Origin: Candidatus Altiarchaeota archaeon
GTDB lineage: Archaea > Altiarchaeota > Altiarchaeia > IMC4 > SCGC-AAA252-I15
Length of the DNA stretch: 25,574 nucleotides
Assembly (NCBI GenBank): GCA_043804895.1
Contig: JAZDIN010000017.1
Coordinates: 1 to 25,574, forward strand
Direction of reading: 5' to 3'
In this document: positions 4,661 to 25,574 of the stretch, piece by piece
Numbering within the stretch: position 1 is the first letter of the stretch
Layout of the letters: every line of letters begins with the position of its first letter
Notes under the pieces: model-generated
Told to the model about the DNA's origin: nothing
The model's database searches: none
The model's input: only the letters and a program-made list of their open reading frames with translations
Position numbers and translations under genes: made by a program

Positions 4661-5236
4661 ATGAGGGTTATAAGGGCGGATCCGGTTGATTCTGATGATA
4701 CCGCCATATTGGAGGCTGCTAGTGTTGTTTTAGGTGGCGGCGTTATCGTTTATCCTACTGATACTGTTTATGGGATAGGGTGTGTTCTTGGGGAGTTGGC
4801 TGTTAGGAGAGTTTATGCCATCAAAGGGAGAGGCTCAGTCTCTCCGTTGAGTGTGGCGTTTTCGAGCGTCGAGGAAGTTAGGCACTACACCAATATGACA
4901 CGAAAGCAGGAGGAGTACGTCAGAAAGGAGCATACGAATGGGATGACATTCATCCTTGAGAAGAAGGAAATCCCGGATTATGTGACTGCAGGACTAAAGA
5001 CTGTCGGGGTCAGGATACTGGACAATAACGTATGCCGGAAGCTCATACAAAGAACTGGCCCCCTGATTACGACAAGCGCTAACCTGTCTGGTGGTAGGGC
5101 CCCGACAAGGGTTGAGGAGATTGACAGAGAAGTAGCTGAGAACGTCGACCTGATACTTGACGGAGGGCCGTGCAAAATAGGCAGGCCATCGAGGGTAATA
5201 GACCTCACCCGAGGATATGGGGTCCTCCGGGATTAA
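4661..5236 (+). CDS. tsaC: Threonylcarbamoyl-AMP synthase (single-domain TsaC/YrdC form)
   Basis: YPTDTVYGIG, IKGR, TTSANLSG and PSRVIDL motifs; no Sua5 C-terminal domain. Confidence 0.92.
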   Translation: MRVIRADPVDSDDTAILEAASVVLGGGVIVYPTDTVYGIGCVLGELAVRRVYAIKGRGSVSPLSVAFSSVEEVRHYTNMTRKQEEYVRKEHTNGMTFILEKKEIPDYVTAGLKTVGVRILDNNVCRKLIQRTGPLITTSANLSGGRAPTRVEEIDREVAENVDLILDGGPCKIGRPSRVIDLTRGYGVLRD

Positions 5237-22305: not shown

Positions 22306-24441
22306 TCACACTGTCTCAGTCTTATTGGTTTTTATCTCAGCGATCTTCCCTGCGATATCCCCTGCTTTCGGGTCGCCTGGGTTAAGTTTCAGATACTCCC
22401 CCCACACTAGCGCAGCCTCATCAGGCTTTCCGGTGTTGTAGTAAACCAATCCTAAGTCGAAGTATGCCTTGGCATAACTGGGGTCAGTCATTATAGCCTG
22501 CTTATACTGTCCAACAGCGTCATCGTATCTGCCCAGGTCAACTAGCAAAACAGCCAAATTAGTCCTAGCCTTAAGGTACGTGGGGTCCAACTTCAAAGCC
22601 TTAAGATATTCCGTCCCTGCAGCATCCCTATCACCCTTAAGTGCATAGGTGTATCCCATGTTATTATGGACTTTTACGCTGTTGGGGTCAATCTCTAGTG
22701 CCTTCTTGAACTCTCCGATGGCATCATCATACTTGCCTTCTCCAATGAGCAAATTCCCCAAATCATACCTTACTTCAACACTGTCAGGGATTATGCTAAC
22801 AACCTCCCTCAAAAGCTTTTCAGCCACGGTCTTGTTTGTGTCAAAATACCTGTCAGCAAGCCTAAGATAATACACTGACCTGATGTCCCTGCTCATATAA
22901 TCTAAGTAGATGCTCGCATTCCACACCTGCCTGAAGTCGTATAGCATCCAATAGTTCCTGTCAGGTAGACTCTCGCCAGCTCCAACGACCCGGTACAAGA
23001 GCCCCGTCTGCCTGAAGATATACCCCTCAAATACCGTATCTGGCTTGCTCGTATAATACACCGGCCCCCCCCTCTCTATAACATTCAACTCTACAGCCTT
23101 CCTCCTCTTCTCATGAGTCTCCTCACTAAGCCAAACATAATCGTCACCATAAAGGCTGTGACTTAAAAGGCCGTTCTCCTCGTACATCGTAACGTCAGGC
23201 CTTACCTTCTCTACGAGGAGCAAGTAGTTGAGAGGCATAACCTCGTTATCCCCTTTGGCGAATATCACCGCATCTTGATCGACAGTCCTCAGAATGTTCA
23301 TCCCATAATCGTACGCCAGCAGGTTCCCTGACTTGTCGCTCACATAATAGTTGGAGGAAATGATCAAGGCCGCGACTGCCGCGGAGGCTGCATATTGTAG
23401 TCTAACGTCCTTCGACCAACTCCTCAACCACTTGAAAAGTTCCGTGAAACCGAACCCAGACCAGACGCCGAGCACGATGATGCTTGGTATGCAGAATGTC
23501 GTAATCTCAAGCGAGACGTCATTCAGAAACAGGGCATACGCCAAATCCGCTGCAACCATAAGCGCCGTGTAGTTAAGGAAGACGCGATTCTTCCTCCAGT
23601 GTCTGTAAAACCCAACCAACACGAGCACACCAGCCACTGAAAACTGCTGCAGATAGTGGTAAATGAGGCCCACAAACCTGGTAAAAATATCAGAAGCCGT
23701 GAGTGTGAGGACATATGTCCTCCTATGCACTGAACCCGTGACATGGTTGATGAACCGTCCGACAGTGTTCGGATTCCCCCAATTGTAGACCGGATTGCTC
23801 AAGGCACTCAAAGGCAAATACAAGTACAACAGCAAAGGCGCAAGAAAAGATGCTGCAAGCAGCCTCAAATCAACCTTACCCCAAACTCTCCTATTCCCAG
23901 ATAATGCAAGATACACGAACGCTGGCAGGTAAAGGGCGATAGAGATATGGTTCGCCAGACCTAACCCGAAAACCAAAGCAATGTAAAACAAACCCATACC
24001 CCCCCTATCCTCCCTCCACCTTAAGGTCAGCCACAACAACAGCGCCACAAAAAAACCGTTAATACTATACGCCTCAGCGACAGTAGCCTGATCCCACAAC
24101 GCCATGGAAAAGGCAACCAACAATCCCCCCCCAAAACCAGCAGCCCAAGATTTAGTCAGAATCCTAATGCTCAAACACACCAACATCGCGGCCGCGGCGG
24201 CGAACACAGCGCTCATGAGATTATACCTGTAAGCCACAGAACCGACAGGAAGAAGAGAAAAAACCCTCCCAACCACCATGTATAACGGGTAGCCCGTGGG
24301 GTGGGCTACACCGAACGTGTAAGAGGCAGTAATGAAATCCCCACTATCTCCATTATACACTGTAGGGCACAATGTCAGCACATAAAAAAACAACGACGCA
24401 GCAAAAACAACCAAAACAGCGGCCCTACCACCCAAATCCAT
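22306..24441 (-). CDS. DUF2723 (TMEM260-like GT-C glycosyltransferase) with C-terminal TPR repeats
   Basis: GDSGDF; VAHPTGYPLY; AEAYS; GLANH; YLPL; NWGNP; GDN; multiple TM segments; about four TPR repeats. Confidence 0.88.
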   Translation of the reverse strand: MDLGGRAAVLVVFAASLFFYVLTLCPTVYNGDSGDFITASYTFGVAHPTGYPLYMVVGRVFSLLPVGSVAYRYNLMSAVFAAAAAMLVCLSIRILTKSWAAGFGGGLLVAFSMALWDQATVAEAYSINGFFVALLLWLTLRWREDRGGMGLFYIALVFGLGLANHISIALYLPAFVYLALSGNRRVWGKVDLRLLAASFLAPLLLYLYLPLSALSNPVYNWGNPNTVGRFINHVTGSVHRRTYVLTLTASDIFTRFVGLIYHYLQQFSVAGVLVLVGFYRHWRKNRVFLNYTALMVAADLAYALFLNDVSLEITTFCIPSIIVLGVWSGFGFTELFKWLRSWSKDVRLQYAASAAVAALIISSNYYVSDKSGNLLAYDYGMNILRTVDQDAVIFAKGDNEVMPLNYLLLVEKVRPDVTMYEENGLLSHSLYGDDYVWLSEETHEKRRKAVELNVIERGGPVYYTSKPDTVFEGYIFRQTGLLYRVVGAGESLPDRNYWMLYDFRQVWNASIYLDYMSRDIRSVYYLRLADRYFDTNKTVAEKLLREVVSIIPDSVEVRYDLGNLLIGEGKYDDAIGEFKKALEIDPNSVKVHNNMGYTYALKGDRDAAGTEYLKALKLDPTYLKARTNLAVLLVDLGRYDDAVGQYKQAIMTDPSYAKAYFDLGLVYYNTGKPDEAALVWGEYLKLNPGDPKAGDIAGKIAEIKTNKTETV

Positions 24442-24477
24442 CTTATAAAATAAGCAGACCAGGCCTATAAAACCCGA

Positions 24478-24666
24478 CTAACGCCTCTCATCCCAGTTGA
24501 AAATATTCCTCCCCTTCAACACCCTCTCAACATCCTGGTGAGATCTCACATCCACATTCCCGTGGAACCTACTATTAACCCCCGAAACCATCTCACCCAC
24601 ACACAACCTGAACTTATTCGCTGCAATAAACTTCAACTCCTGATAAGCCCACATCCTACCATCCAT
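24478..24666 (-). CDS. Small hypothetical protein (62 aa)
   Basis: MDGRMWAYQELKF...; same strand and G-rich coding bias as the neighbouring gene; no family recognised. Confidence 0.45.
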   Translation of the reverse strand: MDGRMWAYQELKFIAANKFRLCVGEMVSGVNSRFHGNVDVRSHQDVERVLKGRNIFNWDERR

Positions 24667-24782
24667 ATAAGGCAAAAAATAACACAACAAACCTTAAAAA
24701 CACACAACAAACTCTTTTATCATCGAAAACGCAGAACACCCCTGCATTGATGTAGGGGATAAATGCGATAATCCGCGTTTTC

Positions 24783-24870
24783 GTGACGCGACCTAGCCCA
24801 CAGGCTAGGGCGTGTGTCTGAGCTTTGCTCAGCCACATAAATACCCCAGCCTAGGGCTGGGGAATATTTA
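24783..24870 (-). mobile_element. IS200/IS605-like non-autonomous palindromic element
   Basis: Three hairpins: CCTAGCC/GGCTAGG (24792-24809), CTGAGC-TTT-GCTCAG and CCCCAGCC-TAG-GGCTGGGG (24844-24862); the minus strand ends ..GGTCGCGTCAC, like an IS200/IS605 right end. Confidence 0.5.
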
Positions 24871-24904
24871 TCCTAAGCCTGCCTTAATGATATGCCAATA
24901 ACAT

Positions 24905-24943
24905 GGGCCTGTAGCCTAGTGGATAAGGCGACAGCCTTCTAAG
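24905..24943 (+). tRNA. tRNA-Arg(UCU) 5' half only
   Basis: Acceptor GGGCCTG, TA, D arm GCCT-AGTGGATA-AGGC, G, anticodon stem ACAGC, loop CT-TCT-AA (anticodon 24938-24940); no T arm or exact CAGGCCC found nearby. Confidence 0.8.
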
Positions 24944-25200
24944 AACCTTCTAAGGTTCCAAGAAAGCGCCAATAGGCGCTTTCAGGATGCTGTCAGGCTA
25001 ATAAGCCTGACTTGCATCACGAATGAGCCGTCTTCGACGGCTCTGAGCGGGGAAAAGAAGGCTCCAAAAGAGGATAAGGTTTTTCTTTTGGGGATGAAAC
25101 ACCTTTTCTTTCGAAAAGAAAAGGGGTTCCTGAGCCATTTCGGCGTCCCCGAAGGGGACGGCACTTTGTGGGACATGCCGCTTCGCTTCAGCCCCGGATG
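24943..25200 (+). ncRNA. Multi-hairpin structured element following the tRNA half (intron-like)
   Basis: At least seven hairpins, e.g. 24962-24983, 24986-25018, 25025-25043, 25064-25091, 25102-25124, 25144-25160, plus long-range AGCGG/CCGCT and GGCTC/GAGCC pairings. Confidence 0.65.
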
Positions 25201-25256
25201 TGGGACCTTTTCCTTTTAAAAAAGGGGTTAATATATGTTGTTTTCTTTATTTTTAT

Positions 25257-25574
25257 ATGCGTTGGCGTTTTTTGCTGCTGTTTTTGCTTGGCGTTGCGAT
25301 TATGCTCGGCGTGTTCGCTTACAGCGGTCCTGAGGAGGTCGTCAGGAGTTTGCTGAATTTTAATTTCCAGTATTTTATGGTGTTGCTTGGCTTGCAGGGT
25401 TTCCTCATGTTTTTGTGGGCGGTGAAGTGGCGCGTGGTATTGCGGCATTCCAAGGTTTCTTTCAGGAATGTTTTGCTGGTGTCGTTTGCAGGCTATTTTG
25501 CCAACAATCTTACACCGGTGAACATGGCTGGCGGAGAGCCCTTGATGGCTTACCTGCTTCCTAAGGTTGACAGG
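25257..25574 (+). CDS. Lysylphosphatidylglycerol synthase TM / UPF0104 flippase-like protein (5' part, runs off window)
   Basis: Manual translation MRWRFLLLFLLGVAIMLGVFAYSGPEEV...WAVKWRVVL...GYFANNLTPVNMAGGEPLMAYLL; N.LTP...GGEP motif. Confidence 0.85.
   Translation, partial: MRWRFLLLFLLGVAIMLGVFAYSGPEEVVRSLLNFNFQYFMVLLGLQGFLMFLWAVKWRVVLRHSKVSFRNVLLVSFAGYFANNLTPVNMAGGEPLMAYLLPKVDR

Follow-up and report, generated by a model that had tools for sequence, protein, structure and literature searches.

Where is the rest of a tRNA gene whose 5′ half alone is present? The window (the whole stretch of DNA analysed, 25,574 nt, which is the complete contig C17 of a 71-contig, 1.58-Mb Altiarchaeota-like MAG, G000) carries near its end the 5′ exon of a tRNA-Arg(UCU) that leads into a chain of hairpins (Table 1). 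A preliminary description of the sequence had pointed to this 5′ half and seven hairpins, two of them with AATA loops, and to the tandem duplication of CCTTCTAAG (24935-24943 and 24946-24954), the complementarity of AGAAGGCT (25056-25063) to AGCCTTCT (24933-24940), the word CAGCCCCG at 25189-25196 and the lack of a T arm or 3′ exon, and all of these were found as described. In the window, no T arm or acceptor 3′ strand lies between the tRNA 5′ exon and the next gene: ARAGORN (bacterial mode) called 0 tRNA genes, Rfam 15 gave 0 matches at gathering score, and a pattern search for a T arm plus acceptor strand returned nothing usable. The four Rfam matches in 24300-25574 are chance-level (E 0.6-9) and far under the thresholds. 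CAGCCCCG was considered as a decayed acceptor strand and rejected, having no T arm in front of it.

The 5′ exon sits in a setting that can be compared with those of related genomes, whose complete Arg(UCU) genes have a front part 96-98% identical to it. A TATA-like box lies ~33-42 nt before the mature 5′ end, a spacing shared with other tRNA genes of this MAG, and by-eye comparison suggests that it may act as the promoter of the 5′ exon. Divergently from the tRNA runs a small conserved ORF of 70 aa (24478-24690), which matched no family in a Pfam search and has homologues in four of the five genomes searched. In G006 this homologue is likewise divergent from a complete Arg(UCU) gene, and because G006 thus shares the arrangement of the window, the window locus is taken to be the orthologous Arg(UCU) locus; in G004 and G015 the homologue is found downstream of tRNA-Arg(UCU). 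The tRNA itself is needed, since AGA and AGG make up 17.5% and 50%, respectively, of the Arg codons in long ORFs. The hairpin stretch between the small ORF and the tRNA (24784-24852) is repeated on contig C4 (78297-78374; 69-78 nt) at 90-93% identity, and its hairpins have shorter matches in G032, G036 and G040. On contig C29, a 16-nt copy of the 5′ end of the tRNA lies within a 195-aa ORF; as a second 5′ exon this copy was rejected as a chance occurrence (a 20-mer with three or fewer mismatches is expected ~0.1 times).

Table 1. Features of the window and, below them, features of other contigs and of related genomes that are referred to in the text.
Feature	Position	Strand	Basis or remark
Small conserved ORF, 70 aa, divergent from tRNA	24478-24690	-	ORF list, homologue search
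Hairpin modules upstream of tRNA, two or three hairpins	24784-24852		
A/T-rich TATA-like box	24863-24872	+	upstream 60 nt of 18 other tRNA genes, by eye
tRNA-Arg(UCU) 5′ exon, nt 1-37	24905-24941	+	sequence inspection, comparison with relatives
Acceptor 5′ strand GGGCCTG	24905-24911	+	
D arm	24914-24929	+	
Anticodon stem 5′ strand ACAGC	24931-24935	+	
Anticodon loop CTTCTAA, anticodon TCT	24936-24942	+	
Intron, first 190 nt, six-hairpin mosaic	24942-25131	+	folding, z = -8.66
Hairpin	24943-24958		
Hairpin, AATA-containing loop	24962-24983		
Hairpin, AATA loop	24992-25011		
Hairpin, TTC loop	25025-25043		
Stretch common to window and C20 end, 72/73 identical	25059-25131	+	sequence comparison
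Hairpin	25062-25093		
Polypyrimidine/hairpin/polypurine element copy, ~50 nt	25081-25129	+	nhmmer
Hairpin, CGA loop	25102-25124		
Sequence after shared stretch, absent from C20	25132-25235	+	no tRNA features
Hairpin, GAA loop, beyond shared stretch	25144-25160		
LPG_synthase_TM-family membrane-protein gene, start; runs off contig end	25257-25574	+	ORF, Pfam
Upstream tRNA 5′ copies (approximate)	C2:23155-23195; C11:54090-54130; C33:4790-4830		
G016 Arg(UCU) intron, 79 nt	at 37/38		
G006 Arg(UCU) intron, 105 nt	at 37/38		
G002 (same genus) Arg(UCU) intron, 141 nt	at 37/38		
G017 Arg(UCU) intron, 201 nt	at 37/38		chain of hairpins
Partial 3′ copy, G006	C1 ~253330-253440		
Partial 3′ copy, G017	4915-5075		
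Partial 3′ copy, G002	~840-750	-	

The MAG was searched for a T arm with the complement of the acceptor strand of the window behind it, and in the 1.58 Mb one match had all the expected parts, at the end of contig C20 on the minus strand. The 3′ exon found there consists of A38, GCTGT, a 5-nt variable loop, the T arm ACGGG-TTCGAAT-CCCGT, the acceptor strand CAGGCCC and discriminator G. Its GCTGT complements ACAGC of the window, and the acceptor and anticodon strands of the window pair perfectly with it (12/12 stem positions). T6 of the window pairs with A67 of C20, in the same-genus genome G004 the pair is C6-G67, and this compensatory difference argues that the two halves are co-adapted; overall, the 3′ exons of C20 and G004 differ only at acceptor-strand positions 67 and 70. 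The two contigs also have a stretch of intron in common, 73 nt long, in which the sole mismatch is A at window position 25114 (T in C20). Identity with the window reaches the last base of C20, and between the shared 73 nt and the 3′ exon (nt 38-73) C20 carries 7 nt, CGAAGGA. The 3′ half that the preliminary description had suggested looking for, with a leader that pairs with the region, does exist, as a perfect 3′ exon, but its visible leader is not complementary to the window. Both the 5′ exon and the matching 3′ exon were found only once in the MAG. With the Rfam tRNA model run over the whole genome, the C20 piece scores 21.9 bits and the 5′ exon of the window is missed. The protein gene on the C20 side has a homologue in G001 only among the relatives searched, and there it does not adjoin the Arg(UCU) gene. 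Very probably, the window carries the 5′ exon and 190 of the ~197 intron nt of tRNA-Arg(UCU), with the remainder on C20, and the gene made up of these two pieces is the only such gene detectable in the genome.

The window and C20 pieces were concatenated by script into a joined form of 272 nt, which in an unconstrained fold (-128.5 kcal/mol) adopts the acceptor stem, D arm, anticodon stem and T arm of a tRNA, with a 197-nt intron at 37/38 in which the hairpins form an intron domain. At the junction, the helix ACAGC/GCTGT is followed by the 3-nt bulge GA↓A, which holds the 3′ splice site, and by a 4-bp central helix CTTC/GAAG. On the far side of the central helix three extra nucleotides (CTC) lie between GAAG and GGTTC, the latter pairing with the intron's first GAACC, so that the 5′ bulge TA↓A either faces three unpaired nucleotides (a 3x3 internal loop) or adjoins a 2-bp helix. 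The strict junction, GAACC...GGTTC-GAAG, is present in G006 and G002. The joined form would accordingly be spliced from a near-canonical bulge-helix-bulge (BHB), with a 5′ cut site that is predicted to be looser than in these relatives. A single homologue of the splicing endonuclease EndA is encoded in the MAG (contig C1; 183 aa, domains tRNA_int_endo_N and tRNA_int_endo), and it has the length of a short one-subunit enzyme. Of the four readings in the preliminary description the giant intron comes closest; imagined to continue past the window, it is, in the joined form, a BHB-type intron of ~197 nt at 37/38, and it does not run off the window.

The Arg(UCU) gene was located in 12 related genomes, of which 11 could be parsed, the gene of G005 being cut by a contig end. 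All 11 parsed genes are contiguous; seven are without an intron and four have one at 37/38, with lengths from 79 to 201 nt. A contig end lies within 350 nt of the gene in 5 of the 12 relatives, which indicates that this locus often breaks assemblies. Downstream of the gene in G002, G006 and G017 there is a partial copy of its own 3′ end, comprising a T-stem strand and the acceptor strand, and hairpin modules either separate these copies from the gene or interrupt their T loop. The copies look like the att-type repeats of past integrations, and the Arg(UCU) locus is evidently a trouble spot for recombination as well as for assembly. Aligned with the pseudo-3′ region of G006, window positions 25121-25240 score 37 (shuffle maximum 36); this alignment depends on a single hairpin and was not counted. 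Partial copies of another kind are seen in the MAG itself, where Phe, Lys, Ile and other tRNA genes have a copy of their first ~14-18 nt at 100-190 nt upstream; these 5′ copies run into a shared non-tRNA word, which is CAGCCTTACTATGCACGGTTGG in two cases.

The portion of the intron present in the window has a structure far beyond chance. Segment 24942-25131 folds at -90 kcal/mol, compared with -53.6 +/- 4.2 kcal/mol for shuffled sequences (n = 200), none of which folds as well (z = -8.66). Its first part, 24942-25058, matched nothing in the 40 relatives searched, which fits a fast-evolving intron rather than a functional RNA. A long (~100 nt), structured BHB intron is known from the tRNA-Trp gene of Haloferax volcanii, where it carries a box C/D guide RNA. 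The intron described here resembles it in being a long structured BHB intron in a tRNA gene, but has no C/D boxes and no Rfam match, and consists of repeated, mobile-looking hairpins. We infer that it is a collection of small hairpin modules together with one polypyrimidine/polypurine element that has spread through the tRNA introns of the lineage, and no function is attributed to it.

In this element of ~50 nt, a pyrimidine tract is joined by a short linker to a hairpin, one of whose arms is pyrimidine and the other purine. With nhmmer, copies were found at 11 loci in the MAG, including contigs C2, C4, C24, C30, C48 and C56. Seven of the 11 lie within intron-bearing tRNA genes called by ARAGORN, where they directly follow the 5′ splice site and are oriented opposite to the window copy, which adjoins the 3′ splice site. 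The copy on C30 follows an anticodon-loop-like word in a gene not called by ARAGORN, and among the remaining loci one is in a tRNA-tRNA spacer and two are the copies of the window and C20. A tRNA on the minus strand, as an explanation for the reversed element, was sought by eye, and the upstream sequence has no D arm or acceptor features. Since both orientations relative to transcription occur, the element is best described as a selfish or DNA-level sequence that is tolerated in introns, and in our reading it is not a working part of the tRNA. The tract and arms are mirror/direct repeats of each other, a layout that would allow a three-stranded fold (triplex). Part of a 601-nt query is matched in 34 of 41 genomes (G000 included), and most of the matches cover the element, of which the relatives have numerous copies.

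Beyond position 25131 the window departs from C20. The following stretch, 25132-25235, contains one hairpin (25144-25160), CAGCCCCG and, at 25196-25229, a degenerate second copy of the element (alignment score 34; shuffles 14.2 +/- 2.7, maximum 26), and is followed by the start of a gene for a membrane protein. The contig ends 443 nt past the breakpoint at 25131/25132, and these 443 nt hold the start of the LPG_synthase_TM gene and no recombinase or mobile-element gene. Homologues of the LPG_synthase_TM protein in the relatives are 35-41% identical and probably paralogues, and the linkage is not settled by them. How far the path of the window across the breakpoint can be trusted depends on the assembly. 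In the MAG 31 contig ends overlap another contig by exactly 141 nt, from which we deduce an assembly k of 141. As the 73-nt repeat is shorter than this, the window path past 25131 is probably supported by reads, which argues against a simple repeat-collapse artefact. No 141-nt overlap in the MAG involves the end of C20, and a graph path from there to the window contig does not survive. An exact 55-nt match at the C20 end was considered as the mark of k = 55 and discarded, other overlaps that differ from 141 nt being of arbitrary length (32-139). Imperfect overlaps with other contigs are also found at several contig ends (for example C3/C14, C11/C40, C63/C71, C9/C57 and C29/C38), extending over hundreds of nt with scattered mismatches or matching for ~100 nt before diverging, and suggest strain heterogeneity within the MAG. 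A metagenome scan with the C20-type junction word gave 0 matches, and one with a 5′-exon/intron word gave one contig, which is the complete gene of G017 with its 201-nt intron; the records scanned may lack near-identical ones, and neither result bears on this genome.

In our judgement there is about an even chance that the locus is one cis-spliced tRNA-Arg(UCU) gene, imperfectly assembled as the result of an assembly or strain artefact. The gene would then be transcribed as one precursor, in which the exons would form the cloverleaf and CTTC of the anticodon loop would pair with GAAG at the 3′ end of the intron; the 183-aa splicing endonuclease would cut after 24941 and before A38, and an RNA ligase would join the two exons. 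The 3′ exon would be absent from the window since the locus was not assembled in one piece, and the window past 25131 would come from a strain variant or from a further copy of the repeat. The contig may have captured a strain-level or minor arrangement, with the intact gene present in the population. An assembly break, which the preliminary description had named as a refutation of its observation, is in effect what was found, with intron and 3′ exon divided between contigs. A single cis gene is supported by the unique 3′ exon on C20 and its 72/73 overlap with the window, by the fold of the joined form and the co-adaptation of the halves, by the contiguity of the gene in all 11 parsed relatives at a locus prone to break assemblies, by the complete gene that G006 has in the divergent arrangement of the window, and by the presence of EndA, the need for an Arg(UCU) tRNA and the single copy of each exon. 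It is weakened by the passage of the window from the shared stretch into unrelated sequence, probably backed by reads, by the difference between the copies at 25114 and the lack of a 141-nt overlap at the C20 end, by the extra CTC that loosens the 5′ splice site relative to G006 and G002, and by the short one-subunit length of the single EndA.

The same probable read support (k = 141 against a 73-nt repeat) speaks for a gene that a rearrangement at the repeated intron element has physically divided and that is trans-spliced at the BHB junction, as in Nanoarchaeum equitans, which we think unlikely. Separate transcription of a 5′ half with a ~290-nt trailer and of a 3′ half with its leader, followed by annealing, is an equally doubtful part of that scheme. 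The T-run at 25206-25217 could end the transcript of the 5′ half, the MAG has one 5′ and one 3′ exon that are both intact and compensated, and split tRNAs are known in archaea according to the available part of a review (PMC4033280). RNAcofold favours a dimer over the monomers by 15.4 kcal/mol, and its 72 intermolecular pairs take in the acceptor and anticodon stems, but the gain comes from palindromic hairpins that are equally able to pair within one molecule. The split half proposed in the preliminary description may still apply, because the window leaves the intron at 25131/25132 for a protein gene, yet the visible 80-nt leader is 72/73 identical to the trailer instead of complementary to it, with only 5 bp (GAACC/GGTTC) at the junction. 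Further, no promoter is visible for the 3′ half, C20 ending 80 nt upstream, all 11 parsed relatives have contiguous genes, and with an intron that evolves fast, 72/73 identity speaks for a single locus or a very recent event and not for an established split. We likewise consider unlikely a very recent split at the repeated element, in which the essential tRNA would be made by trans-splicing two transcripts that still share the intron module.

We also doubt, to a similar degree, that the copy in the window is a leftover 5′ fragment from recombination or integration at this tRNA and that C20 marks the site of the complete gene, whose own 5′ exon would be unassembled or unbinned. As the identity extends to the last base of C20, the duplicated stretch may exceed 73 nt; contigs under ~2.9 kb are absent from the MAG, which is 88.7% complete; and partial tRNA copies are common, as 5′ pieces before the Phe, Lys and Ile genes and as 3′ pieces downstream of Arg(UCU) in G002, G006 and G017. 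The available text of PMC3293823 also offers a precedent in which the copies differ by a single base. But it is the window locus, and not C20, that is syntenic with the complete G006 gene through the small divergent gene, no second 5′ exon is found in the MAG, the following 443 nt lack a recombinase or mobile-element gene, and a near-identical second copy of more than 141 nt should break the window contig, which is unbroken. Finally, the decayed tRNA gene and the new tRNA-headed structured RNA that the preliminary description had also put forward would leave the C20 piece unrelated to the window. The window without a 3′ exon and the very stable hairpin region would fit either of them, but both halves are intact and mutually compensated, with perfect pairing at 12/12 stem positions and the compensatory change at 6-67. 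Relatives moreover have functional genes to which the 5′ exon is 96-98% identical, the tRNA is needed (AGA being 17.5% of Arg codons), and 24942-25058 is not conserved in the 40 relatives searched, all of which makes a decaying pseudogene or a new structured RNA highly improbable.

For a single cis-spliced gene, a close parallel is found in the BHB introns of archaea at 37/38, which the intron here resembles in starting after nt 37, in its CTTC/GAAG helix and GA↓A bulge and in the accompanying endonuclease gene. Archaeal tRNA introns are relatively short, mostly under 100 nt, according to the available part of a review (PMC4033280), whereas that of the joined form has ~197 nt, a mosaic of repeated modules and three extra nucleotides, in a gene that is non-contiguous in the assembly. 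The split tRNAs of Nanoarchaeum equitans and some Thermoproteales are similar in having their halves on different DNA, with the break at the intron position of the anticodon loop and a BHB-like junction possible between the halves. As far as the same part of the review describes them, known split tRNAs anneal via complementary leader sequences (PMC4033280); here, by contrast, the visible leader duplicates the trailer sequence, and the 3′ half stands at a contig end. In Caldiarchaeum subterraneum, the text available of Sugahara et al. 2012 (PMC3293823) describes tRNA-Thr-F, -I and -II, with a 1.8-kb recombinase-bearing element and alternative arrangements that were shown by fosmid clones. In that text, tRNA-Thr-F is like the present case in that the 5′ piece of an intron-bearing tRNA gene lies apart from the matching remainder in a composite genome that derives from a natural population, and in that the parts they have in common are near-identical, differing by one base in the intron (PMC3293823). 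The same portion of the paper presents a complete tRNA-Thr gene that keeps its own 5′ part, whereas here a second 5′ exon was not found, no mobile-element gene is visible and the arrangement is known from contigs alone.

No description of tRNA introns in Altiarchaeota was found in the literature searched. In the available part of Bird et al. 2016 (PMC4975002) the word "intron" is absent, and its Table 1 gives only 18-24 tRNAs for Alti-2-type genomes, a number that fits under-detection. With introns allowed, ARAGORN calls only 26 tRNAs in the present MAG, not all of them correctly, and standard tools clearly under-annotate the tRNAs of this lineage. The wrong calls include a "Stop(tta)" that resembles Gln(UUG) and a false Ser(cga) with a 256-nt intron, and the introns called by ARAGORN run up to 151 nt (Arg GCG), with 134 nt in Thr GGU and 118 nt in Met.

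If the gene were split, it would be the first split tRNA in Altiarchaeota and a snapshot of the step from an intron-containing to a split gene, before complementary leaders evolve, and the route by which intron-bearing tRNA genes are proposed to become split could be tested directly in a natural population. If the gene is instead a single cis-spliced one, the locus is mostly a caution that in this lineage long, intron-laden tRNA genes evade standard finders and break assemblies, and for "half tRNAs" in such MAGs the other contig ends should be checked before split genes are called. The analysis documents, for Altiarchaeota, tRNA introns of 140-200 nt that are built of repeated hairpin modules.
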